Shown here: positions 6,840 through 33,124 of the stretch, piece by piece
Position numbering within the stretch: position 1 is the first letter of the stretch
Layout: each line of letters begins with the position of its first letter
Virus record (IMG/VR): IMGVR_UViG_3300010311_000419
DNA length: 45,147 bases
From: a virus
Direction: 5' to 3' (one strand)
The notes under the pieces: model-generated
Databases searched by the model: none
Told to the model about the DNA's origin: nothing
What the model saw: the letters and a program-made list of their open reading frames with translations, nothing else
Position numbers and translations under genes: made by a program

Positions 6840-7290
6840 ACACCCTTGTCAGATGCTCAAGAAGAATGTCTTTGATGTTCTCGATTCCCTTGGTATCGAA
6901 CGGCGGAATCCCGTCACTGTCAGAGTACGGCATAAAGGCCCGCTGCGGCATCTTTCGCGTGCCGGTTTGGTGATACACGCCGTAGAACACGCCGGAGAAT
7001 ACCGACGCTTCGCTCTTATCAGAACGCAGGTTGATCGATTGCTTGAGCTTGCCGTGGAACTCGAGGATTTGGCCGCTCACGCCTTTTGCCTTCTTCTTTT
7101 TCTCGATTGTGCTGTCAGCGAGCGCCGCCCATCCCTTCGGTCGCCCTTCTTGCTCAAAGTTCTCCATCACTTCTTCTTTCATATACACAGCTACGTCTCT
7201 GAGCGGTTTAGAGAGATCGGAAAGCTCCTTGTTCAACCGTTTGGTAAGCGTATCAATGCCTTTGTCGGTATAGGTAAACGTGATGGCCAT
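6832..7290 (-). CDS. Putative head-tail joining protein
   Basis: Gene order only. Confidence 0.35.
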   Translation of the reverse strand: MAITFTYTDKGIDTLTKRLNKELSDLSKPLRDVAVYMKEEVMENFEQEGRPKGWAALADSTIEKKKKAKGVSGQILEFHGKLKQSINLRSDKSEASVFSGVFYGVYHQTGTRKMPQRAFMPYSDSDGIPPFDTKGIENIKDILLEHLTRVCD

Positions 7291-7294
7291 AACA

Positions 7295-7639
7295 TCACCA
7301 CTTATCCATTACGGTTGTTGTGAATACCTGAGTGCCCGCCGTGATATAGTGTTGCGAAGAAGGGGCCGCCGCATCTGTTCCGGTTGTCTTCTTGAGCGCG
7401 CTCATCAATCGATCGTAATATGCCTGGGCCTGCTCCTGGAATCCGTGCCGCTCATATAACCGGTAAATCACGTAAGACGTTTCGTGTATCTCTTTGAGGG
7501 TTGTGTCTGTGATTGCAATAATCGAGTTGATAAACGTCTCCGCTTCCGAGAGCAGCACGGTAAGAATCGAGTCGTCAGATTCCGTCAAGCTGTTAATCAA
7601 GTCTTCCGGGAACTTAGCCTTTAGTTGCGCCACTGTCAT
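7295..7639 (-). CDS. Putative head-tail connector / adaptor
   Basis: Gene order only; first gene after capsid-gene terminator. Confidence 0.35.
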   Translation of the reverse strand: MTVAQLKAKFPEDLINSLTESDDSILTVLLSEAETFINSIIAITDTTLKEIHETSYVIYRLYERHGFQEQAQAYYDRLMSALKKTTGTDAAAPSSQHYITAGTQVFTTTVMDKW

Positions 7640-7653
7640 ATCCGGTCACCTCT

Positions 7654-7687
7654 AAAAAGGACCAGCCGGCATTATACCGGCGTGGCC
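7654..7687 (-). terminator. Imperfect hairpin plus T-tract downstream of the major capsid gene
   Basis: GGACCAGCCGG / CCGGCGTGGCC arms with TTTTT following on the minus strand. Confidence 0.3.
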
Positions 7688-7689
7688 TA

Positions 7690-8751
7690 TTAGGATATCG
7701 TGCTTGTAAATACTTTGCACGCGTTAGCGTTATACAAAATCGGGAGAGGATAGGAGAGTAGCGATATAGTCTTCGTGTGCCCTTCGGATGCTTCGGGAAT
7801 CTTCTCTTTGACGATGACATCGGTCATAATTGGGGATCCATCGGGTTTGAGTTCAAAGTCGACAACCGCGCCGTAGCCGAGAGCAAACTGGCTTGTATTG
7901 AGCAGAATCATCTTTCCGCTTGTGCTTGAGGATTCGGGGATATACTTCGTCGCAACGTTCGAATCGTTCGCGTAGGTCCCGGAATACACGTATATCTCTG
8001 GGATTCCAAACTCTTGGAACTCACCGATGAACCGAACGCTCGGCGAATTAAACCGAGGCTTAAGCAACCCAAAGTTGTAATTGTTTTTGCTGATATACTT
8101 TTCTGTTTTTGAGTGGTTCATGATCCCGCGCGCAAGATACGGGGTCATCAGGATAACGTTCGGCCACATCCCGAGTGTTTGCGCGAACGTCTCGCATTCC
8201 GCGCCGATAAGTTCGAGCGGGTCCGTTGAACTGCTCACCGCGAGTTTCCCGGTTGTGCTGATTCTGTAATCCTGCTCAAATGTTCTTTCAGTCGTTGTGA
8301 AGCTGATTTTCCCAGTCAGGAGGAGTTGTCCGAACATATACTCGATACGGCGTTTAAGCCGATCGCGAAGCCCCTGGAGTTTAACGCCGTAGGAATACGC
8401 GAAGGAACGCGTGATATCCGAAGCGTCATTCAGGTTTGCAAGTTCATTCAGATTAAACGAAGAAGTCAGAGCTTCCGTCGATTCGATGCTGTCGCGTTCG
8501 AAGATTTGGGGCGGCGTCACGGTGATGTCTTCGGCGGTGTTCTTGTAATCAATATTGCGCGCCGGATCGTCACGTAATCCGATCGAGCTCATCTTGCCGG
8601 AAGTGGTGATCATTCGCCATTTGATCGTGGTCGTCGGGCTGAATATTTTACTGGATCCAAGCATTTGCGTGAGAAAGAACGGCTCATCCCTCATCTGTTG
8701 CAATACTTTAGTCAATAACGTAGTCCAGGTAGCACTGTTGAACGTCGCCAT
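7690..8751 (-). CDS. Major capsid protein (lambda E-like position)
   Basis: 353 aa ORF after scaffold and a small decoration-sized ORF, followed by a terminator. Confidence 0.55.
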   Translation of the reverse strand: MATFNSATWTTLLTKVLQQMRDEPFFLTQMLGSSKIFSPTTTIKWRMITTSGKMSSIGLRDDPARNIDYKNTAEDITVTPPQIFERDSIESTEALTSSFNLNELANLNDASDITRSFAYSYGVKLQGLRDRLKRRIEYMFGQLLLTGKISFTTTERTFEQDYRISTTGKLAVSSSTDPLELIGAECETFAQTLGMWPNVILMTPYLARGIMNHSKTEKYISKNNYNFGLLKPRFNSPSVRFIGEFQEFGIPEIYVYSGTYANDSNVATKYIPESSSTSGKMILLNTSQFALGYGAVVDFELKPDGSPIMTDVIVKEKIPEASEGHTKTISLLSYPLPILYNANACKVFTSTIS

Positions 8752-12365: not shown

Positions 12366-13271
12366 TTATGCTCCTTTCGCATAGATTCTCGCGGATTCGA
12401 AGAGCGGCGCACAGTAGCGCAGCATCTCCTCGCGAGGGATAGATGGTACACGGATAAAACTCGGCAATTGGTTGTTTAGATAACTGGAGGCAACCGTCAT
12501 GAAGTAGTTACGCAGGTATTCCGCACGGTTAATCGTTGCATTTCGCGGCATATACACGCTGTCCTCAAAATGATCGACGATATATCGAAGGATCGCGTTG
12601 ATCGCTCGAATGCGCCGTTCAATCCCGTGCGTATGGCTTGATTTGTGTATGCGATAGTGGCGGAATGGTTTGTTGATCGCTTTGGTACGCAAGCCCATTC
12701 GAAGATAGTGCATGGTGTTGATCGTGTCCACGTCGCATCCGAGATACTTGATATAACCGCGGCGCTTTAAGAAGGACGCTCTCATCAATCCTTTCGAAGA
12801 GATCACACTCGACCCGTGCCGTTCGAAGGTTCGCCGTACCGCGTCTTTCGCTTCATAATCCTCAACCGGCCACATCTCCGTCGAGCGGCCGTCTTCGTAA
12901 TGCACGCAGCAACCTGAGTACACGTAATCTATCCGCGGATCAGATTCGATCAGCTTCACCGATTCCGCTATCGTGTCCGGTTCGAGCCAGTCGTCCGCGT
13001 CGTAGAAGTAAATGTACTTGCCTTTCGCCTCTTCTATCATTCGATTTGTGCCTTCCAACACGCGGCCCGAGTTCATATCCGATCGAATGATCTTAATGCG
13101 ATCGGCATAACGGTTCAGCACATCGCCGGATTCGTCGGTCGAGCAGTCGTCGTACACAATGATCTCGAGATTGCGGTGTGTCTGGTCAAGCATCGAATCG
13201 ATGCACCGTGCGAGATACCGCCCGTAGTTGTAGTTATTGATCCCGACCGTGACTAACGGCGCCGTTTCCAT
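12366..13271 (-). CDS. Family-2-like glycosyltransferase
   Basis: VGINNYNYGRYLARCIDSMLDQT...IIVYDDCSTDES and YFYDADD motifs typical of GT-A fold. Confidence 0.65.
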   Translation of the reverse strand: METAPLVTVGINNYNYGRYLARCIDSMLDQTHRNLEIIVYDDCSTDESGDVLNRYADRIKIIRSDMNSGRVLEGTNRMIEEAKGKYIYFYDADDWLEPDTIAESVKLIESDPRIDYVYSGCCVHYEDGRSTEMWPVEDYEAKDAVRRTFERHGSSVISSKGLMRASFLKRRGYIKYLGCDVDTINTMHYLRMGLRTKAINKPFRHYRIHKSSHTHGIERRIRAINAILRYIVDHFEDSVYMPRNATINRAEYLRNYFMTVASSYLNNQLPSFIRVPSIPREEMLRYCAPLFESARIYAKGA

Positions 13272-17058: not shown

Positions 17059-18216
17059 TTACTCTCTGGTTGCTTTCCTCCCTGCGAAATCTTCCCACCG
17101 CTTTACGATCACGTCGCAATACCCTGCATCAAGTTCCATCATGTAGCACTTGCGATTGAGCTGCTCGCAAGCGATGAGTGTTGAGCCGGAGCCGCCGAAG
17201 GGGTCAAGCACCAGCGTGTTGCTCATGGAGCTGTTCATAATGGGGTACGCCAAAAGCGGGATGGGCTTCATGGTTGGGTGATCGCCGTTTTTCTTAGGCT
17301 TGTCGAACTCCCAGATGGTGGTTTCCTTGCGTCCGCTGTACCACTGGTGCTTGCCGCTTTTCTTCCAGCCGTATAGCACAGGCTCATGCTGCCACTGATA
17401 CGGGGAGCGCCCCAGCACCAGCGACTGCTTTTTCCAGATACAGCAGCCGGACAAATAAAAACCGGCATCCGAAAAGGCTCTCCTGAAATTCAGCCCTTCG
17501 ATGTCGGAATGAAAAACATATATGCTGGCGTCGTCTGCCATGACTGCTTCGGTATTCTGGAACGCTGCCAACAGGAAGCTGTAAAAAGCATCGTTTGCCA
17601 TGTTGTCGTTCTTGATTTTCCCGGCACTGCCTTCATAGTTCACATTGTAGGGCGGGTCGGTCACGACCAGATTCGCCTTCTTGCCATCCATCAACCGCTC
17701 CACATCTTCACGCTTCGTACTATTTCCACAAAGCAAGCGGTGATCGCCAAGTATCCACAAGTCGCCGGCCTTGGTAATTGGTTCTTCCGGTGTCTCGGGC
17801 ACATCGTCCTCGTCCGTCAAACCGGTGTTCATATCCAAATCCATGCCAAAATCCGCTAAGTCAAATCCCAAAGCTTTGAGCTCCGACAACTCCCACTCGT
17901 TCGCCAACATGTCAAAATCCCAATCGCCCGCCATGCCACGTGGAGCATTATCCACAAGGATGAATCGCTTGCGTTGCTCCGCCGTTAGATTAGATGCCTT
18001 GACGATCCAACCGTCCGGGACATCTTTCATACCCAGCTCTTTGATTGCGCGATACCTCATATTGCCGCCGAGTATAATACCTTCATCATCAACAACTATT
18101 GGGCGGAGCGTCATAAACTCCGGATCACGTTTGATTGATTCGCACAATTTTTTGAACGCTTCATCCTTAATTATTCTTGGGTTCTTCGAATTAGCTTTGA
18201 TGTCGGATAAATTCAT
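17059..18216 (-). CDS. ParB-like nuclease domain fused to DNA methyltransferase (N6-A / N4-C class)
   Basis: N-terminal ParB-like segment; VTDPPYN (motif IV) and DPFGGSGST (motif I); GGAGG RBS. Confidence 0.8.
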   Translation of the reverse strand: MNLSDIKANSKNPRIIKDEAFKKLCESIKRDPEFMTLRPIVVDDEGIILGGNMRYRAIKELGMKDVPDGWIVKASNLTAEQRKRFILVDNAPRGMAGDWDFDMLANEWELSELKALGFDLADFGMDLDMNTGLTDEDDVPETPEEPITKAGDLWILGDHRLLCGNSTKREDVERLMDGKKANLVVTDPPYNVNYEGSAGKIKNDNMANDAFYSFLLAAFQNTEAVMADDASIYVFHSDIEGLNFRRAFSDAGFYLSGCCIWKKQSLVLGRSPYQWQHEPVLYGWKKSGKHQWYSGRKETTIWEFDKPKKNGDHPTMKPIPLLAYPIMNSSMSNTLVLDPFGGSGSTLIACEQLNRKCYMMELDAGYCDVIVKRWEDFAGRKATRE

Positions 18217-19101: not shown

Positions 19102-19650
19102 TTATACCCTCCCCAGCATCGTATCCAATATGTACCGCGACCACGATTCGAGCGGCATCTTATCGAGCTCCTCGATCGTGTGCCAACGCCACTCCGGTAT
19201 CTCGTCCGATGGTTTGAGTTCGCCTGCCCACTTCGTGCAAAACGACGCCACACCGAGATGAACGCGATCAACAGCGGTTTTGTGCAGCATAATGCTGATT
19301 CGGTATTGGAGATGTACCGGTGTTACGCCAATCTCTTCGAACATCTCGCGCCGTCTCGCGTTGTCTACCGCAGGCCAGCCGTATCCGTCGTTCTCGTCCA
19401 CGTGCCCGCCGATCCCGATGGTGAGTTGATCGTGCAACCGGCTTTCACCGCTCGTCTTTTGCCGTTTGTAAGCAAGTATCTTGCCGTTGTCGCCTCTCGT
19501 GCGGTCGAACAGCACCGTATATGGTATCAGTTGCCGGTACGCGTAGTTCGTCTCGACAATGCTCCGTTCGAGGTAGACACCGCGGGCGTTTACGTATTCC
19601 ACCACGTCATCGATGTCGCTGATCGCTGGAACGCATAGTATCTTCGCCAT
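19102..19650 (-). CDS. Nudix hydrolase
   Basis: Nudix box GGHVDENDGYGWPAVDNARRREMFEEIGV. Confidence 0.75.
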   Translation of the reverse strand: MAKILCVPAISDIDDVVEYVNARGVYLERSIVETNYAYRQLIPYTVLFDRTRGDNGKILAYKRQKTSGESRLHDQLTIGIGGHVDENDGYGWPAVDNARRREMFEEIGVTPVHLQYRISIMLHKTAVDRVHLGVASFCTKWAGELKPSDEIPEWRWHTIEELDKMPLESWSRYILDTMLGRV

Positions 19651-19651
19651 C

Positions 19652-20743
19652 TCACACCTCCGTGGATCGAATCGGCATTATGTAATGCGAGGCGTTGCCA
19701 TCTTCCAACCGCATAATCTCCGCTGGCGTGCCAAGCCGTATTGTCAGATCGCTGCTTTTAACGTGTTGCGCGGATTCCAGGAAGTAGTCTGGGTTATATG
19801 CGATTTTCAACGCCGGCCCTTCAAACGCGCACGGGACAGATACGTTCATTGCGCCTTTGCCGGTAGAACGCGCGGTGAACACGAGTTCTTTGTTTGCTAC
19901 ACTCATCAACACGCTTTCCTTTGCCTCAGCGGTAACCACGCGGGCGAACTTGACAGTCTTTATCAGCGCGTCACGGTCTACGGTTACGGTTGTTTTGTGC
20001 ATTGCGCCAATCACGCGCCGATAATCTGGATATTGGAGATCGAGCTTGCGGATGATAACCTTGGTGTCCGGAGATTCTATCCCGAACGAGGTGATATTAT
20101 TGTATAACCTCACGAGCGCCGGATAGCGCTTCAGGAATGAGAGGAATATTTTCGCCCCGCCAAGTGGTATCGTGAACGCCTCGATGTCCGGGATTGGTTG
20201 CGCGGTGTCGATTGTCGCAAGCCTGAACCCGTCCGCCGTGACGAACCGGAGATGGCCGCCAACGCTTTCGAAGTGTAGCCCGTTCAACGCGCGCATCATT
20301 GGATCGGCGGCTATCGCATAGATAACGCGGTCAATCTCGCTTGAGAGTGTCGGGATGAGTTCGATCGGTTCAGCCGTTGAATCGAATATCAGCGCCGGAA
20401 AGTCTTCTGGGTCGAGCATTGGGATGTTTGCGACTCCGCCGTTGCTGTACACGTCAAGCGTCGCTTCGTTTTCTTGCTTGATGTTCAGCTGAGCGCTCGG
20501 CGCGTTTTTGGCGATCTCAAAGAGCGTCTTGGCGTCCACGGCGGTCTTGCCCGGCGATTGCGCGCTCGCCCCTTCGAGTTTGATCCGTATCGATGTTTCC
20601 ATATCCGTTGCGTACAGGTATACGGCATCACTGCATTCGATCAGCACGCTTGATAGGATCGGCTTAATCGCCTTTGCCGGCGCAACGGATACAATGTTCG
20701 TCATCGCATTTTCGAGAGTTTTCTTGTCAACTGTAAATTCCAT
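19652..20743 (-). CDS. dnaN: DNA polymerase III beta sliding clamp
   Basis: ~363 aa; NGLHFE...FVTADGFRLA-type clamp motifs; GGAGGGG RBS before ATG at 20743. Confidence 0.75.
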   Translation of the reverse strand: MEFTVDKKTLENAMTNIVSVAPAKAIKPILSSVLIECSDAVYLYATDMETSIRIKLEGASAQSPGKTAVDAKTLFEIAKNAPSAQLNIKQENEATLDVYSNGGVANIPMLDPEDFPALIFDSTAEPIELIPTLSSEIDRVIYAIAADPMMRALNGLHFESVGGHLRFVTADGFRLATIDTAQPIPDIEAFTIPLGGAKIFLSFLKRYPALVRLYNNITSFGIESPDTKVIIRKLDLQYPDYRRVIGAMHKTTVTVDRDALIKTVKFARVVTAEAKESVLMSVANKELVFTARSTGKGAMNVSVPCAFEGPALKIAYNPDYFLESAQHVKSSDLTIRLGTPAEIMRLEDGNASHYIMPIRSTEV

Positions 20744-20964
20744 AGTCCCCTCCAATGTAGTTTTCGATTTTAAGGCTGTTTTTAGCCCCTACGGGCGACG
20801 TTCGGGTTGAGTTGCGAGTGTTTTGTCACGGCGGATTTTATCGCGCGTTTTGGGGCCGTTTAACGCGTTTTGCTCTTCGTCATCCCCGGATGCCCGAAGC
20901 AACGCCGCGATAATCATGCCGATCGGCGCGCCGATGAATATGCCGATGAGGATGCCGGCGAGCA

Positions 20965-25807: not shown

Positions 25808-26026
25808 TTATTGTATTTGTGATTCGTTGCTTGAAAACGAGCGCATAAACGAGTAGAAGTCGCGCTCGGATACACCAAGGGCTTCAGCAAGTTTGATCAT
25901 TGTGTCGTGAGATGGTTTTCTAACGCCTCGTTCTAAGTGGAAGATATAGCTTTCACTAACACCGACTTTTGCGGCCAGTTCAGTTCTGGTAAGGCTTTTT
26001 TGTTTCCGTAAATCACTAAGAGTCAT
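25808..26026 (-). CDS. Cro-like HTH (XRE family) regulator
   Basis: LTRTELAAKVGVSESYIFHLERG; AAGGTGA RBS; divergent from cI-like gene. Confidence 0.7.
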   Translation of the reverse strand: MTLSDLRKQKSLTRTELAAKVGVSESYIFHLERGVRKPSHDTMIKLAEALGVSERDFYSFMRSFSSNESQIQ

Positions 26027-26131: not shown

Positions 26132-26485
26132 GTGCTAAAATTGATTGCAATGGGCTTTGAAGCTAAAACAACAGGAAAAAGAATCGCGGATATTCGAGGT
26201 AAGAATAATATTAGTCAAGAGAAGTTGGCTGAAACGCTAAGCAAGAGCGTATCCCTGATTTCTCTTTACGAGGGCGGGCATCGTGTACCACCGCCAGATG
26301 TTTTGTACCAGCTTTCAGAATTGTTTGGGGTATCTGTGGATTATTTGCTTGGCCTTACCGACAACCCAAAGCCGATCGGAGGTTTACCTCCCGACTACGC
26401 TCGTCTAAAAGCGATCGAGGTGGAATTGGAGAAGATCGACCTCGCGCGGATCATCGAGATCGAGCGGCTGATGCGGAAGTTATAG
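26132..26485 (+). CDS. CI-like HTH (XRE family) repressor
   Basis: ISQEKLAETLSKSVSLISLYEGG HTH; only plus-strand gene in the early region; may start at ATG 26150 as a leaderless mRNA. Confidence 0.65.
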   Translation: MLKLIAMGFEAKTTGKRIADIRGKNNISQEKLAETLSKSVSLISLYEGGHRVPPPDVLYQLSELFGVSVDYLLGLTDNPKPIGGLPPDYARLKAIEVELEKIDLARIIEIERLMRKL

Positions 26486-26602
26486 AACGCCAATTGAACG
26501 TGTATAGAACGTGTTTGCTACACCAAGACGCGGTTCTTTCCATTTTGGAAATAACCACCCATTTTCGTGACGCCACGAAAAAGGCCAACTATCGAGTAAT
26601 CC

Positions 26603-27340
26603 TTAAAAAAGCCTCTGCTGTCTATCTTCTCTGTCAAACCTTTGCTCAAGTTCGAATATCGTCTTGTCGCGCGTGAAAGTGTTACACCTATCATTAAAAT
26701 CGCTTCCCCACTTCAGCAGAAGTTGCCATAAATAATTATAGTTTTTCTTGAGAAGGCGCAAAGAACCAAGCCTTTGCTTGTTGCAAAACCAGCACCCACC
26801 GCGAGCCAAATCGGTATATATAGGCGACACAAGATCAAGCGATTCGCATATCGCCATCGCTTCCCGCTCGGTTATTTTATAATCAACTAATGGCGCTTTT
26901 ATGTTTCCAACAATCTTACCGTGCCTTTTTGGCTCATCGTAGGCATAGCCTATATACTGAATGCCTTTGTTGGTTTGATGTTTTTTTAAGACCTTCTGTT
27001 TTAATTCGCTTACACACCAGCTTCCTATTATGTTTGGAAACCCATACATTTTGCCTGGGTATTTACCTCTTTTTCTTATCCTGTGGTAAATTTCCTCGAA
27101 CGTATAATCAGAACTAACACGCTCGACCTCTATTCCATATCGATCCAGAATAATTTTATCCGCTTTGTTTTTGAAGTCAACCATAGGCGGTAAATCCGCT
27201 GGTATATCCTTTGTAGCCCAGATTTCCGCGTGTATGATTCTTGTTAATGGCAGTTTATTCTGATGTATAACTTCTAACATTGCAAGACTGTCTTTTCCGT
27301 AACTTATTGATGCTACATACTCCAGTAACTCGTCGACCAT
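26603..27340 (-). CDS. PAPS-reductase-like (PP-loop ATP pyrophosphatase family, DndC-like) protein
   Basis: PP-loop-like SYGKDS near N-terminus and C-terminal GGCWFC; AGGAG RBS before second ATG at 27340. Confidence 0.6.
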   Translation of the reverse strand: MVDELLEYVASISYGKDSLAMLEVIHQNKLPLTRIIHAEIWATKDIPADLPPMVDFKNKADKIILDRYGIEVERVSSDYTFEEIYHRIRKRGKYPGKMYGFPNIIGSWCVSELKQKVLKKHQTNKGIQYIGYAYDEPKRHGKIVGNIKAPLVDYKITEREAMAICESLDLVSPIYTDLARGGCWFCNKQRLGSLRLLKKNYNYLWQLLLKWGSDFNDRCNTFTRDKTIFELEQRFDREDRQQRLF

Positions 27341-27649
27341 GGTAGGGTTGCTCCTCGTCAAAAATTATCCCCGCCCGCGGGGGTGGTGCGAGCGGGGAAC
27401 CAATGTGGTGTTTTTATTTCAAGAAAAAGGGGTCGAAAAATACCCCCTGCCGGTGTCCCGCCAGCAGAGGGCAAACGGAGGTATCACGTGTAGAAAGGAG
27501 GAGTTTTATCGGGGCGTTCGTTAGTCGCAATTAGTCGCAATTGGTGGTTTCGTCATTTTTTCTAGAACCTTAACCCGCCTCGGCCAGCGTTTCAGGTTTT
27601 CTATCGCTTCCGGAGAATACTCCTCTTCGAGGGGTTTAGAATATAATAT

Positions 27650-29005
27650 TCAAATTTGTTTTTCTTCTGTTTGTATTTTTTCTGATTTTCTGTTAAAGTT
27701 TATTTTCAAAATAGAACGCTGCCAACCATCGCCGTGTTGAAGCATTAGTGCCTTTTTAGTGCTACAACTTATTTCCTTCCCATTTTTATCCCTGATATGA
27801 ACTGTTCCGGCGCTTTTCACCGCGATTGCGCGTCCGGTTATGCCTTTGACTTTTACAAAATCGCCAGTCATGAATCCTTCTTTGGTCTTGTTGCGACTGC
27901 GATGACCTCTTGCAAAGCCATGTTTGTCCGGTATAATCGTTTGTCTGTTTCCACGGCCCATTATCTTGTTTATTGTTGCGTATTGTGTTTTAACATCAAT
28001 GTGCTTATCGCACAAACCAACACAAGCAGCATCAAAATAATGTTCTTTTGGCAACCCTTGATTGTGCCTGTTGAATTTCGTTCTCCCGCCAGAAGCGAGC
28101 TCAACGTCTCCAAATTCCTCTTTGAGCTTGTTGCATAAAACCCATCGGGTTGTGTTTACGCTTGCAGCATCTTTAAGGGTCTGTTTTGCGTCCTTTATCG
28201 CCTTTTCGAAATTTGCGATCATGGTTTTGGCTTTATCGCCTTTTTGTTTTGATAAGTATTCTATATATTCTTTCGGCATCATATTGGACTTCTCTTGATT
28301 GCATTTAACGCAAGCGATTGCGAGATTATCAATGCGGTCCGTGCCGCCTTTGCTTTTCGGAATCATGTGTTCAATTTCAAGAGGAACTTTTTCAGCACCA
28401 CAATAAGCGCATTTCCTACCGTATTTTTCGAGCAAGTATTCTTTCACTTCATACCCGAATAACTTTCCATGTTGATATTCAACGCCAGACACTTCGGGGT
28501 TTGCTAACTTTTGCATATCGAACTTCACGTGTTCAACTGATACAATTTGAATAGGCGCTAATGACTTCATTTTTCTAACTAAGTTAAGAGTTGAGTATAC
28601 TCTTGAAAGCATAGAGGGTGCGAAACGCCCTTTCTTTGTGCTGTTTTTTCTATTGGCCCAACGAGCTGGTCGATACCGTGTGTTTCTGTTTCTGCGGCCA
28701 CGGCGCATTTGCGACCTGTGTTTAAGGTTATCCGCGACCGTTATTTTATGCTTCACTATTCCGGCATAACGTAAAAGTAATTTGTCTTCTTTCTCTTGAA
28801 TAACAGCGATTCCTGTTTCTTTACTTCCGGGATCAATCTTTATTTGTAATGGCTCAACCTTACAATCCTCAACTTCGTTTTTTAGGCGAATCGTAAACGG
28901 AGTGTATTTGTGTATAACTGCTTTTTTGTTTTCGAGTAACTTTCTTGCTCTCTTCTCGGAGCAAGGCATCAAAGGTTCTTTGTGTTTGTTAAGTACGAAT
29001 ACCAT
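27650..29005 (-). CDS. iscB: IscB-type RNA-guided nuclease (PLMP, RuvC-I, bridge helix, HNH, RuvC-III)
   Basis: MVFVLNKHKEPLMP start; IKIDPGSKETGIAV; RSQMRRGRRNRNTRYRPARW; CAYCGAEKVPLEIEHMIPKSKGGTDRIDNLAIACVKCNQEK; KEHYFDAACVG; ~451 aa; AAGGAG RBS. Track start at 29071 rejected. Confidence 0.8.
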   Translation of the reverse strand: MVFVLNKHKEPLMPCSEKRARKLLENKKAVIHKYTPFTIRLKNEVEDCKVEPLQIKIDPGSKETGIAVIQEKEDKLLLRYAGIVKHKITVADNLKHRSQMRRGRRNRNTRYRPARWANRKNSTKKGRFAPSMLSRVYSTLNLVRKMKSLAPIQIVSVEHVKFDMQKLANPEVSGVEYQHGKLFGYEVKEYLLEKYGRKCAYCGAEKVPLEIEHMIPKSKGGTDRIDNLAIACVKCNQEKSNMMPKEYIEYLSKQKGDKAKTMIANFEKAIKDAKQTLKDAASVNTTRWVLCNKLKEEFGDVELASGGRTKFNRHNQGLPKEHYFDAACVGLCDKHIDVKTQYATINKIMGRGNRQTIIPDKHGFARGHRSRNKTKEGFMTGDFVKVKGITGRAIAVKSAGTVHIRDKNGKEISCSTKKALMLQHGDGWQRSILKINFNRKSEKIQTEEKQI

Positions 29006-29351
29006 ACAGGTATCACTCCTTTTATTTACAGCCCGAAGGCTTGCGCTTACGCGCCTTGTAACGCGAGGCATATGCCTCGTCTCTCCTCGACAATGTTATA
29101 ATGCCTTTTTACGAGCCAATCACTTGCGTACCTTCCGTGTTTACAATCGCATGTTTAGACTGGTTCGACAGAGCAGCCGGCTGGAGAAGCACCTGCTGGT
29201 GTCATGAGCAAAATAACGTAGGTCTCTAAGACCTTAGTCTGGACCCGCTTTGTAAATAGATAAGTTACAAACCGCTACACATAAGGTAAAATTAATCCGT
29301 GATTTATGTTACAGCCAAAAAGCAGCGGGCTTGAATGGCTTAACTCAACGG
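29006..29351 (-). ncRNA. Candidate omega-RNA / tracr-like scaffold for IscB
   Basis: Non-coding ~350 nt between array and iscB; consecutive hairpins including CGAGGC-AUAU-GCCUCG, GCGC-GUAA-GCGC (GNRA) and AGCC-UUCG-GGCU (UNCG); 29256-29264 is the exact reverse complement of 9 nt of the array repeat. Boundaries approximate. Confidence 0.5.
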
Positions 29352-29516
29352 GTTGCACCTTATCTATGGTTGGGGCGGGACGTATGTTACGGCGAAGATC
29401 TTTGTATCGACGACGTGCGTTGCACCTTATCTATGGTTGGGGCGGGACAATGGTTAGGCCGTTCCTGGAGTCGATCAGGGATTTTAGTTGCACCTTATCT
29501 ATGGTTGTGGCGGGAC
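29352..29516 (-). CRISPR. Mini CRISPR-like array: three 30-bp repeats, two spacers (37 and 38 bp)
   Basis: Repeats at 29352-29381, 29419-29448, 29487-29516 (third has one mismatch); plus-strand repeat GTTGCACCTTATCTATGGTTGGGGCGGGAC; spacers GTATGTTACGGCGAAGATCTTTGTATCGACGACGTGC and AATGGTTAGGCCGTTCCTGGAGTCGATCAGGGATTTTAG. Strand inferred from iscB. Confidence 0.7.
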
Positions 29517-29866: not shown

Positions 29867-30454
29867 TTATTCTTTTGATCGGGCTGTAACAAAAGCAGGC
29901 GTTGAAACTTCGCACGAAACAGAACAATTATTCGCGTACCGGTAAGATGGATTTCTGCTCGAGAGATCGCGCAATGCCTTTTGTTGCTCAGATGTGAGGT
30001 GAAATAAAGTAATCATGTTTGAAATCGGGAAGTATATGATCTTGGCACCGCTAAATTCGATGGATGGATAATCTTTTTCTTGGTCTCTCACCCTTATGGA
30101 TACAGGTATTTCCAAGTTTCGCAAATAGTTGCCGTATGCCTCGCCCTTGCCTTCATCTACAAACACAAGAAATACTGGGATGTTGTACTTTTCTGATATA
30201 GTCTTGTACTGGATGTAATGTTTAAAGTCGATACCTTGATCTGGATACATTTGCCGTCTTGCCTTACTCTTCACGTCCAGAATCAGCAAATCTTTCTTGT
30301 CTGGAGATGCCAGAATCCGGTCAAACGGATGAGCACCCGGCCATACTGGTTCGTATGGGATCATTTTCTTTCTGCTTTTGATATACTCATCCACCAATAG
30401 CTCTCCAAAATCACCTTTCTTGGTTTGAATTTTCTCGCGAAAAAGTTTAATCAT
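29867..30454 (-). CDS. PD-(D/E)xK-family nuclease (restriction-endonuclease-like), putative
   Basis: GDFGELLV ... PFDRIL ... LILDVKSK matches E / D / (D/E)xK spacing; ATG at 30454 is 5 nt after the upstream stop. Confidence 0.45.
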   Translation of the reverse strand: MIKLFREKIQTKKGDFGELLVDEYIKSRKKMIPYEPVWPGAHPFDRILASPDKKDLLILDVKSKARRQMYPDQGIDFKHYIQYKTISEKYNIPVFLVFVDEGKGEAYGNYLRNLEIPVSIRVRDQEKDYPSIEFSGAKIIYFPISNMITLFHLTSEQQKALRDLSSRNPSYRYANNCSVSCEVSTPAFVTARSKE

Positions 30455-31937
30455 GACACACATCACCAAGCTTTCGCAAGAAATCGGAGCTGTACTTATC
30501 CTCCTTCTCAAATCCAATAAAATAGCGTTTACATTTTGCGGCCGCCAGTAACGTGGAACCTGAACCGGCAAACGGGTCGAGAACCACTTCACCAGAACTG
30601 CTGGAGTTTTTGATTAGATATTCCAATAAAGGCTCCGGCTTCTGGCAATCGTGAACCTTATCTTGCGGGATAGCAAACTCAAGCACGTCGGGAGAAACGG
30701 GGTTGTTCAATTTTCGTTCTTTCCCGTTTGGCATCGTGCAGAACCAGATAATCTCATACTTGGAGGCATACCGTGCTTTGAAATCACACGGCGTGTGGTT
30801 ATTCTTCACCCAAGTGAGCCAGTTATCATGTACTTCAAAGTGTTTGGAGAGGATTCTTTTGAACTCGAAAGCATTTACGCAGCCGCAAAAAACGTAGATA
30901 TGAGCGTTTTCCTTGCATACCCGTTTCAACTCAACGCACAGATCATCGAAATACTCCAAGATACCCAACGAATCATCAAACTCAGGGTTGCCAGTTCTCC
31001 GGGAGGATTTGAAATCCACCCCATAAGGCGGGTCGGTGATCACAACATCAACTTCGTTATCAGATAATGATTTGATACCTTCCAAAGCATCCACACCAAA
31101 CTTGGCCTTGTTTTTCACTCCTTCGTTGAGCTGCTTGATAACGGATTCCAACCTTTTATCGCTGTACTCACCTTTGTGAATTGCCTCGAACAACTCAGCT
31201 TTCTTCTCATCCGAGATCTCCGGAGAAAGTTGCTCTTCCATCATTTTGAGCTGGCTGCGGATGCCTTTGTAGTATTCAACCTTTTCGTCCAGTTTTTTCT
31301 TGGCAGCTTTGCATCTCTCTTCTACGCAAAACCATACCATCACTTTCATCTGGTCATCCGCTTCTAATTCATACAATCCTGACGTCCGAAACCACCCCTC
31401 GGTGAAATCGCACGTTGTAATACCGCGTTCATTTTTTGGTGCAAATGTACCAAAGTTTGGTACACGGCCCTCCTGAAAAGTTTTGGCCAAAATCAGAATC
31501 TCTGCACCAATTTTTGAACGCAATGTTACGTGATTTTTTACTTTTTCCCGGCTCCACCCAATCCGCTCGCCGATCTTCTCTTGCGTGGTCCCATCATCTT
31601 GGAGCTTTGCGATCAAATCGAGCCAATCAAACAAATCCATCGGCGAGTAGGTGTCCTCGTCTTGGTTCCCGTTTATGGCGAGGGCATAGGGATCGTGGCC
31701 TTCCTCATACACAACGCACGGGACCTTATCGATGTTTAGTTCTTTAATCACGGCAAACCGATGATTGCCGTCCGCGATCAAGAATGAACCGTTGCTCTTG
31801 ACGACCGAAAGCGGGCGAGCCGGATTATAGCCGGATTCCGTGATCCGTTTCTTTATCTTCTCCAACGTGCTCGGCCGGATATCTCGAACCGGAAATGGTT
31901 TTAATCTTGTTACTTCGATCAATTCAGTAGCGTACAT
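30447..31937 (-). CDS. ParB-like (DGQHR-like) domain fused to DNA methyltransferase; paralog of 17059..18216
   Basis: N-terminal LIADGNHRFAV; VITDPPYGV (motif IV) and LDPFAGSGST (motif I); 496 aa. Confidence 0.8.
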   Translation of the reverse strand: MYATELIEVTRLKPFPVRDIRPSTLEKIKKRITESGYNPARPLSVVKSNGSFLIADGNHRFAVIKELNIDKVPCVVYEEGHDPYALAINGNQDEDTYSPMDLFDWLDLIAKLQDDGTTQEKIGERIGWSREKVKNHVTLRSKIGAEILILAKTFQEGRVPNFGTFAPKNERGITTCDFTEGWFRTSGLYELEADDQMKVMVWFCVEERCKAAKKKLDEKVEYYKGIRSQLKMMEEQLSPEISDEKKAELFEAIHKGEYSDKRLESVIKQLNEGVKNKAKFGVDALEGIKSLSDNEVDVVITDPPYGVDFKSSRRTGNPEFDDSLGILEYFDDLCVELKRVCKENAHIYVFCGCVNAFEFKRILSKHFEVHDNWLTWVKNNHTPCDFKARYASKYEIIWFCTMPNGKERKLNNPVSPDVLEFAIPQDKVHDCQKPEPLLEYLIKNSSSSGEVVLDPFAGSGSTLLAAAKCKRYFIGFEKEDKYSSDFLRKLGDVCHD

Positions 31938-32257: not shown

Positions 32258-33124
32258 TTTGTAAGTATATTATATCACATAGCATCACTCAACGCAAAAG
32301 GCTACAAAACACGAACCGGCAAACCGTGGGCGCAAACATCTATCTATGAGATGCTCCATAACAAGCGCTATGCCGGAATCTATACCTACCGCGGGAAGAA
32401 GCTCGGAAACAACAGCCACGCCAAACGCACGGATACGATAGAGGTTCCCGGCGTGATCCCGCCTATCGTATCGCCCGAGACATTCGAGCGCGTCAAGGCC
32501 CGATGGCGAACCAACATCACGCGCGCGCAAACCAAACACGCGCACATCTTAACCGGGATCATCTTCTGCGGCGTATGCGGCGCGCCGATGACCCTCACGG
32601 GCGGGCGTTATCCCAAGTATCAATGCTCGCGATGGAAGAATAACCGTGATACCCAATACGTGAGCGCAGGCGCGAAGACGGCAGATAAACGCGTGATCGG
32701 ATACGTTAAGAATATCATTCTCAACGAGCCCGACTTCGAAAAGATCGCCGAGAACTATAACAAGGAACACGCGCTATCAGATATGGCGCTCAAAAGCAAG
32801 GTCGAGGCCATCACCGCGGAACTCGCCGAAGTGAACTCCGGAATCGATAACGCCGTGAGCGCGATACTCAAAGGGATACTATCTGCCAAACTTGAAGAAG
32901 AAGTGAAGCGGTTGGAACTCAGAAAGAAGAAGCTGAACGAAGACCTCTTGAACCTCTCGCAAAGCACCGGGCGGCGCATCACGACCGAAGAGGTAAGAGG
33001 CATATACACGCGCTACGAAGAGATGCTGAACAGCGACGTAACCGAGCAACGTGCTCTTGTGCTTGATCTGATCGAGCGTGTAGAGGTATTCCCGGAAGGA
33101 TTTATGAACATCGCGCCGAAATAG
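32258..33124 (+). pseudogene. Large serine recombinase (integrase), N-terminally truncated: catalytic domain absent
   Basis: Frame open from stop at 32255-32257; ..KGYKTRTGKPWAQTSIYEMLHNKRYAGIYTY.. recombinase domain, zinc ribbon IFCGVCGAPMT...KYQCS, C-terminal coiled coil; no room upstream for the ~140-aa catalytic domain. Confidence 0.55.
32269..32297 (-). promoter_or_regulatory. Candidate promoter for the accessory operon
   Basis: Minus-strand TTGCGT (32297-32292), 17 bp, TATAAT (32274-32269); GAGGGGG RBS before ATG at 32236. Confidence 0.4.

Follow-up and report, generated by a model that had tools for sequence, protein, structure and literature searches.

The record IMGVR_UViG_3300010311_000419 is a stretch of viral DNA of 45,147 nucleotides (nt), analysed here over its full length as the window. 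It reads as the complete 45-kb genome of a temperate gut siphovirus, with terminase, portal, Mu-F and tail genes and a replication module that contains SSB, RusA and a β-clamp. The subject of this study is one gene of this genome, designated T, which probably encodes a small PP-loop enzyme and is convergent with the gene of a CI-like repressor. An earlier note on this DNA had assigned the T protein to the PAPS-reductase-like (DndC-like) proteins and had proposed a role in DNA or nucleotide modification. The immediate locus is composed of the following features (aa, amino acids; HTH, helix-turn-helix):

26603..27340 (-): T, predicted stand-alone SspD-like PP-loop ATP pyrophosphatase of 245 aa, with its ATG at 27340
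26486..26602 (no strand): gap of 117 nt between the stop codons of T and of the CI-like gene, which are convergent
26132..26485 (+): CI-like HTH repressor gene, convergent with T
25808..26026 (-): Cro-like HTH gene, divergent from the CI-like gene and followed by a YqaJ exonuclease and RecT

The convergence of T and the repressor gene described in the earlier note was thus found again, and a scan of the 117-nt gap detected no terminator-like site. The same layout recurs in close relatives (L012-L015, L001-L002), including cases in which the repressor has another DNA-binding domain.

T is a real gene under purifying selection. Its open reading frame (ORF) extends in full over 26603..27361 (-) when counted from an alternative TTG start at 27361, and the sequence GAGGAG is located 10 nt upstream of the ATG at 27340, the start that gives the 245-aa product of the earlier note. 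An independently called protein of 245 aa (P0001) is 99% identical to T, and the ratio of nonsynonymous to synonymous substitution rates (dN/dS) is 0.13-0.14 in comparisons with four relatives whose proteins share 96% identity with T. The family is large: a search of 5.8 billion proteins, clustered at 90%, returned >2,260 homologous clusters, and none of the 120 homologues listed carries a precomputed Pfam domain. An exhaustive profile search over 1.84 billion representatives of 50%-identity clusters gave 2,655 matches at E<=1e-3, of which 1,611 reached E<=1e-10 and 437 reached E<=1e-30. No GenBank phage matched the T region by megablast.

To describe the conserved residues, we used an alignment (A1) of 44 homologues, mostly 48-58% identical to the window protein, with one close relative at 85%. 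Four segments are invariant in this alignment:

27287..27304 (-): S13-Y-G-K-D-S18, the PP-loop, an ATP pyrophosphate-binding motif
27014..27019 (-): W108-C109, with the first of four invariant cysteines, opening helix 108-121 in the secondary structure of the model
26846..26848 (-): C165
26783..26803 (-): R180-G-G-C183-W-F-C186, with a CxxC pair

The SYGKDS motif (residues 13-18) and the cysteine pair within RGGCWFC (residues 180-186), both singled out in the earlier note, are therefore features of all 44 homologues. H37, E39, D49, K114, E136 and R139 are also invariant, and no conserved cysteine follows C186. The distant family member P0214 has the canonical SGGKDS sequence. An AF2 model of T (pLDDT 90) places a strand at residues 8-11 followed by a helix at 16-27, and predicts the Rossmann-like α/β/α fold common to the solved PP-loop members.

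Profile searches place T within the superfamily proposed by the earlier note, the PP-loop ATP pyrophosphatases or PAPS-reductase-like proteins. PHROG 424 ('PAPS reductase') matches residues 8-232 with E=6.8e-28, over profile positions 163-388 of 460. Among the named families, T is closest to SspD, the sulfur-transfer subunit of the SspABCD single-strand DNA phosphorothioation system, which gave the best match to T in the defence library, nearly over the full length. The PADLOC SspD model, which has no curated cut-off so that a match means relatedness and not orthology, aligns with residues 8-233 (E=1.5e-11, model positions 2-221 of 277) and recognizes all 44 homologues, with a best E=3.7e-18; E-values of this order (1e-11 to 1e-18) point to a subfamily of its own. 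The DndC model, in contrast, matches a single one of the 44 members (E=0.005) and the BrxP model two. The earlier note had suggested such a profile classification as a check, and its 'DndC-like' label stands for the superfamily and is imprecise for the family, as SspD and PHROG 424 were matched and CysH, QueC and, but for one member, DndC were not. PF01507 (PAPS_reduct) does not match the window protein at E<=1 and reaches 20 of the 44 homologues below threshold (best E=8e-4). None of the NCBIfam models for CysH, APS reductase, DndC or QueC was matched by T; the sole return from NCBIfam was PRK13795, a 'hypothetical protein', far below its cut-off.

Other searches were less informative. Pfam and single-sequence PDB searches gave no usable match, and the best profile match to a solved structure was PDB 21fy chain C ('PptA'), at a borderline E=0.08 over profile positions 99-210; in this borderline alignment, the two sequences line up at the W/A-C...LK, E..R and C..C motifs. 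A fold search of BFVD returned only fragments and distant phage PAPS reductases, the fragments of the T family carrying a QueC label. The ATP_bind_3, TtcA and QueC models produced only noise (2 of 44 members at E=0.13), with none in NCBIfam, and neither QueC models nor a context of queD, queE or folE places T in the QueC family. PAPS reductases of the IbrA type have a C-terminal DUF3440 domain and an adjacent gene for a ParB-like protein (IbrB); DUF3440 has no match in T or in the 44 homologues, and the only ties to ParB are one fusion (L142) and the ParB-methyltransferases located elsewhere in the window. Taken together, the sequence data describe T as a PP-loop enzyme of the ATP type in which four cysteines are invariant.

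The CysH-type reductase implied by the common annotation was rejected on the evidence of motifs and profiles. The catalytic ECGLH motif, located in the C-terminus of E. coli CysH (KRECGLHEG), is missing from T because no conserved cysteine follows the CxxC pair. An hhalign comparison of A1 with E. coli CysH aligned 21 columns, all in the PP-loop region, with a probability of 0.8%, and over these columns the intact SISYGKDS of T faces the degenerate SSSFGIQA of CysH. No NCBIfam model supports the assignment either, and the grouping with housekeeping CysH reductases that the earlier note had named as grounds for refutation was not observed. As that note had also stated, sulfate-assimilation and queuosine partners are absent: among the ~40 window ORFs scanned we found neither, and cysDN, cysC and cysIJ are missing as well from the tabulated related neighbourhoods.

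The neighbourhoods of the relatives of T were then compared in a viral set of 80 IMG/VR loci, which form 40 non-redundant groups at 90% identity, and a bacterial set of 80 genome loci; partner genes were scanned over 155 related loci. A DNA methyltransferase (C5, Dam or ParB-N6_N4) lies at most three genes from T in 15 of the 40 viral groups, and an S-adenosylmethionine (SAM) synthetase, MetK, is fused to T or immediately downstream in nine. The fusions with MetK are proteins of 625 aa in which three S-AdoMet_synt domains were confirmed. The fused forms found were:

L039 6010-7887: T fused to MetK (SAM synthetase)
L113 7305-8750: N6_N4 DNA methyltransferase fused to T
L142 7977-9938: T fused to ParB_N/HTH_ParB
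L084 58-1566: C-terminus of a C5-methyltransferase reading through into T

A tandem T-T duplication also exists (P0131). A recurrent gene order, found in the bacterial as in the viral loci, consists of TerS(P27), a C5-methyltransferase, in some cases an N6_N4 methyltransferase, T or T-MetK, a sigma-like protein, an amidoligase, GGCT and TerL. Within the TerS-TerL block of the phages with T-MetK, the sigma-70-like, Amidoligase_2 and γ-glutamyl cyclotransferase-like genes form a conserved cassette of their own (L046 8714-9715, L053 10092-10541 and many other loci).

The bacterial loci belong almost all to gut Clostridia (Christensenellaceae, Ruminococcus, Oscillospiraceae and Anaerotignum), with a few Bacteroidota, and T is present in prophages of gut Clostridia. 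Its carriers also include conjugative plasmids of Clostridium and elements resembling integrative and conjugative elements (ICEs). In five of the latter (L110, L118, L135, L150 and L160, at ~8000), a C5-methyltransferase gene is followed by T and then by the gene of a ~1000-aa DUF3991/Toprim protein. In an ICE of Vescimonas fastidiosa (L174, pMM35_01, 6989-7747), a T homologue is located between Topo III and DUF3849, with ArdA and a methyltransferase near. Finally, a 5.5-kb circular microvirus (L009, OM869548.1) encodes at 1845-2606 a 253-aa homologue, annotated as hypothetical and 33% identical, between the genes of the major capsid protein and of the replication initiator; single-stranded DNA phages do not usually carry an enzyme of this sort.

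The genes that accompany SspD or DndC in phosphorothioation systems were not detected beside T. No sspA, sspB or sspC gene and no IscS-like gene was found at any of the 155 loci, and dndD/dndE and dndA/dndB are absent from the window and from the related loci. There is no conserved ATPase neighbour: a Walker-A protein occurs within two genes of T at 18 of the 155 loci, mostly MetK or replication proteins. In the window, the sole Walker-A protein is the large terminase, no Dnd/Ssp-type ATPase is present, and no MetK, cysteine desulfurase or queuosine gene was found among the ORFs scanned.

Two DNA methyltransferases with ParB-like N-termini, both announced by the earlier note, are encoded in the window:

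30447..31937 (-): ParB-like N-terminus and N6_N4 DNA methyltransferase, 496 aa (Pfam N6_N4_Mtase, 6.8e-34; PHROG ParB-like, 1.9e-12, residues 18-140)
17059..18216 (-): second ParB_N and N6_N4 DNA methyltransferase, 385 aa (Pfam), beside the terminase, given as context only

Of the DNA-modification genes upstream of T, the former lies closest to it, with a 241-aa ORF and an IscB element in between, and it possibly represents a functional neighbour, that is context rather than a demonstrated partner. Members of the cluster of the latter lie directly upstream of T in other phages. ParB-like domains, which belong to the DndB superfamily, are thus present both at the N-termini of these methyltransferases and in the T-ParB fusion of L142. 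The link between ParB and Dnd drawn by the earlier note is real through the fusions (T-ParB_N and N6_N4-T), and indirect as far as the methyltransferases of the window are taken as partners of T.

SspD resembles T in its size, its PP-loop and its PAPS-reductase-type core. T differs in having no adjacent sspA (cysteine desulfurase), sspB (DUF4007 DNA-binding protein) or sspC (ATPase), and in residing in phages, ICEs and plasmids instead of defence islands. DndC, which is about twice the size of T, belongs with BrxP to the same superfamily and is presumed to share its chemistry, an ATP pyrophosphatase reaction with sulfur transfer to DNA. The partner of DndC is DndB, a ParB-like protein, and the T-ParB fusion in L142 offers a parallel to this pairing, while the DUF4007 fusion and the extra domains of BrxP are lacking in T (PMC12839542). 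Among proteins of this kind, a genetic phenotype is known only for p0018 of Vibrio phage 44E38.1, and it is anti-Dnd: the transfer of two phage-specific genes, of which one encodes a fusion of a PAPS domain with Dam, allowed a related phage to escape a DndFGH host (bioRxiv 10.1101/2021.05.05.442762). A phage-borne PAPS-reductase-like domain joined to a DNA methyltransferase is common to p0018 and the T family, in the latter through fusions and frequent adjacency; the T of the window stands as a gene of its own and does not adjoin a methyltransferase. By tblastn, T found no Vibrio phage at E<=1e-5, and the PAPS reductases of Vibrio phages in BFVD have a template-modelling (TM) score of ~0.54 to T with 13-14% identity. 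Assimilatory APS reductases, like CysH, differ from T by the ECGLH cysteine, which T does not have, by the K-D-S that T keeps intact, and by the lack of a significant profile match.

We propose that T is a DNA-modification or anti-restriction enzyme of mobile elements, a tentative reading to which, taken as a whole, we would give a probability of about 45%, and a lower one to any single chemistry. The motif and the fold suggest that the SYGKDS loop would bind ATP and that an oxygen of the substrate would be adenylated with release of pyrophosphate. C109, C165, C183 and C186 may then hold an Fe-S cluster or a persulfide and deliver sulfur, by analogy with DndC, SspD, TtuA and APS reductase, the persulfide being charged by a cysteine desulfurase of the host. 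The substrate would be the DNA of the element itself, modified by T alone or by T plugged into the Dnd, Ssp or BREX-4 subunits of the host, and the incoming or replicating DNA would evade modification-sensing restriction, most plausibly of the phosphorothioate-sensing kind. This last step draws on the surroundings of the gene, on fused domains and on a single genetic precedent from the literature: the DNA of the element is the favoured substrate because of the fusions with methyltransferase and ParB domains, the company of ArdA and orphan methyltransferases, the carriage by four kinds of mobile DNA and the Vibrio phage. Feussner et al. have also proposed an anti-defence role for PAPS reductases, which they found in Aca-regulated operons (PMC13551039). 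The hypothesis of a role in DNA modification is in this way strengthened by context, with DNA as the putative substrate.

Several observations weigh against this proposal. All characterized phosphorothioation systems depend on a P-loop NTPase (DndD, SspC or BrxC) as well as on a subunit that binds or nicks DNA (PMC12914056), and near T, neither such a partner nor a cysteine desulfurase was found at the 155 loci or in the window. In gut isolates, phosphorothioate requires a PAPS-reductase-domain protein together with an NTPase, and the modification was absent from isolates that have the PAPS-reductase gene alone (PMC12914056). The Vibrio PAPS domain is a different, distantly related one and was transferred with a second gene. 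Methyltransferases are common in such regions anyway, which makes their adjacency to T weak evidence, and the MetK fusions may represent a single lineage with shared synteny. Moreover, the fold search does not separate DNA-acting from tRNA-acting PP-loop enzymes, and the family is known from sequence, model and context. As the ATPase and the DNA-binding partner are absent, T must hijack host subunits, act as a decoy or perform another chemistry, such as the formation of a thio-base. An autonomous enzyme that thiolates DNA with host sulfur donors, yielding phosphorothioate without an ATPase of the DndD/SspC type or a thio-base, possibly on bases that the neighbouring methyltransferase has methylated, is an outside chance.

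Four other explanations have to be weighed. T stands alone in the way of tRNA thiolases, and the family fragments in BFVD carry the QueC label, which would fit an enzyme that modifies RNA or free nucleotides (a thiolase like TtuA, TtcA or NcsA, or a QueC-like amidation) and retunes host translation or the nucleotide pool. We consider this unlikely, since the ATP_bind_3, TtcA and QueC models did not rise above noise, the 245-aa protein has neither the zinc fingers of the TtuA type nor tRNA-binding domains, queD, queE and folE were not found, and the fusion partners are DNA methyltransferases and a ParB DNA-binding domain. A reading closer to our proposal is that T, a methyltransferase and SAM synthetase together generate a hypermodified base, by further modifying a methylated base or by making a modified SAM-type cofactor, rather than a backbone phosphorothioate. 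The translational fusions T-MetK and methyltransferase-T and the recurrent order of TerS, C5-methyltransferase, (N6_N4 methyltransferase) and T-MetK argue in this direction, and phage methyltransferase homologues that use SAM analogues (PMC12783734) provide a precedent. MetK is, however, missing from the window phage and from most members of the family, the associated methyltransferases belong to unrelated classes (C5, Dam and N6_N4), which speaks against a specific enzyme pair, and the invariant set of cysteines points to sulfur chemistry; such a pathway seems quite unlikely.

That T might serve mainly as a decoy, capturing host proteins (the cysteine desulfurase or subunits of Dnd, Ssp or BREX-4) and thereby disabling or misdirecting phosphorothioation-based defence without modifying phage DNA, would explain why a homologue of the SspD subunit occurs without any partner, and the anti-Dnd phenotype of the phage PAPS domain could come about in this way. 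The PP-loop, E136/R139 and the four cysteines are nevertheless invariant in 44 homologues at 48-58% identity (one closer), which together with a dN/dS of 0.13 is more in keeping with an active enzyme than with a mimic that only binds, so that a decoy appears very doubtful. The least probable explanation is the one that the databases imply. PHROG 424, PGAP and JGI name such proteins PAPS reductases, and a genuine PAPS/APS reductase would be an auxiliary metabolic gene (AMG) boosting sulfate assimilation (cysteine, methionine and SAM) in infection or lysogeny. Studies of viromes interpret phage cysH as an organosulfur AMG, the most abundant one, with an enrichment in the human gut (bioRxiv 10.1101/2021.01.05.425418), the sub-threshold PF01507 matches in 20 of the 44 homologues agree with the name, and the T-MetK fusion is readable as a sulfur-to-SAM theme. 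A 2026 preprint on Bifidobacterium prophages calls the presence of cysH 'puzzling', in hosts without the rest of the pathway. The missing ECGLH, the ATP-binding K-D-S that CysH has lost and T retains, the hhalign probability of 0.8% and the lack of any NCBIfam CysH or APS-reductase match all contradict a reductase, as do the failure to find cysD/N/C/I/J nearby and the presence of the gene in a microvirus and, next to ArdA, in ICEs; we regard it as highly improbable.

The region between T and the nearest methyltransferase gene contains mobile elements. Upstream from T, the order is a 3' remnant of TnpB, IscB with its HEARO/ωRNA, the 241-aa ORF and the ParB-methyltransferase:

27540-27625: 3' end of a TnpB gene remnant (…EEYSPEAIENLKRWPRRVKV…), between IscB and T
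27650..29071 (-): IscB gene (RRXRR and HNH)
29076..29330 (-): full HEARO/ωRNA, 96.5 bits
29352-29381, 29419-29448 and 29487-29516 (-): three 30-nt direct repeats, directly 5' of the ωRNA

GC-rich stem-loops are located at 27369-27473, downstream of the TnpB remnant. Two relatives (L012 and L014) have a TnpB C-terminus at the same site and a third (L015) a different IscB, and the site appears to be an insertion hotspot of the IS200/605 type; with the insertions removed, T would be much closer to a DNA methyltransferase. The repeats have the sequence GTCCCGCC[C/A]CAACCATAGATAAGGTGCAAC and are separated by unique spacers of 37 and 38 nt. The repeat is complementary to positions 29245-29274 inside the ωRNA, where it is paired in the predicted fold in the manner of an anti-repeat, and the locus looks like a small CRISPR-like array on a phage-borne IscB. 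CRISPR-associated IscB loci have been reported as rare intermediates towards Cas9. No exact match to the repeat or to either spacer was found in IMG/VR, and a blastn-short search of the array against all related loci retrieved gave nothing.

The 241-aa ORF (29867-30592, -) between the ParB-methyltransferase and IscB has no family match. As listed, it overlaps the 3' end of the methyltransferase gene, so that its true start is probably an internal ATG, and its C-terminal part is conserved in L014. A D...DVK stretch recalls PD-(D/E)xK nucleases and a faint match to HamA/DUF1837 was obtained (E=0.016); the product could be a nuclease partner of the ParB-methyltransferase. Elsewhere in the window, a serine-recombinase ORF (32351-33124, +) begins within the Recombinase domain, at profile position 48, without the N-terminal catalytic resolvase domain, and this integrase gene may be disrupted or mis-assembled. 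A family-2 glycosyltransferase gene (12366-13271, -; Pfam E=7.6e-28) lies inside the head-morphogenesis module beside the Mu-F-like gene, and the region 19102-20755 (-) encodes a phage DNA polymerase III β sliding clamp (367 aa, with all three domains) and then a NUDIX hydrolase.

Phage and ICE genes for 'PAPS reductase-like' proteins are already widely annotated, and one of them has a genetic anti-Dnd phenotype. New here is that the T family, judged by its sequences, is SspD-like rather than CysH- or DndC-like and has no reductase catalytic motif, and that relatives of T are fused to MetK, methyltransferase and ParB domains and reach microviruses and ICEs. The likeness to SspD, the absent motif, the fusions and this range of carriers speak against the AMG annotation in common use. 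Few AMGs are reported more often from gut and environmental viromes than phage 'PAPS reductase/cysH', which is as a rule taken as a sign that the virus manipulates sulfur metabolism. The T family bears the marks of an ATP-dependent enzyme for sulfur transfer of the SspD/DndC type, and it is found together with anti-restriction genes on four kinds of mobile DNA. If T modifies DNA or counters defence, many AMG inventories would be mis-assigned, and in T one would have a compact candidate enzyme for site-directed sulfur chemistry on DNA. Should it thiolate DNA autonomously, the 'cysH AMG' of gut viromes would largely be an epigenetic counter-defence gene, common to tailed phages, microviruses, ICEs and plasmids. 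Immunity based on phosphorothioate occurs frequently in the gut microbiome (PMC12914056), and if our proposal is true, the mobile elements of the gut would hold a widespread counter-measure to it.

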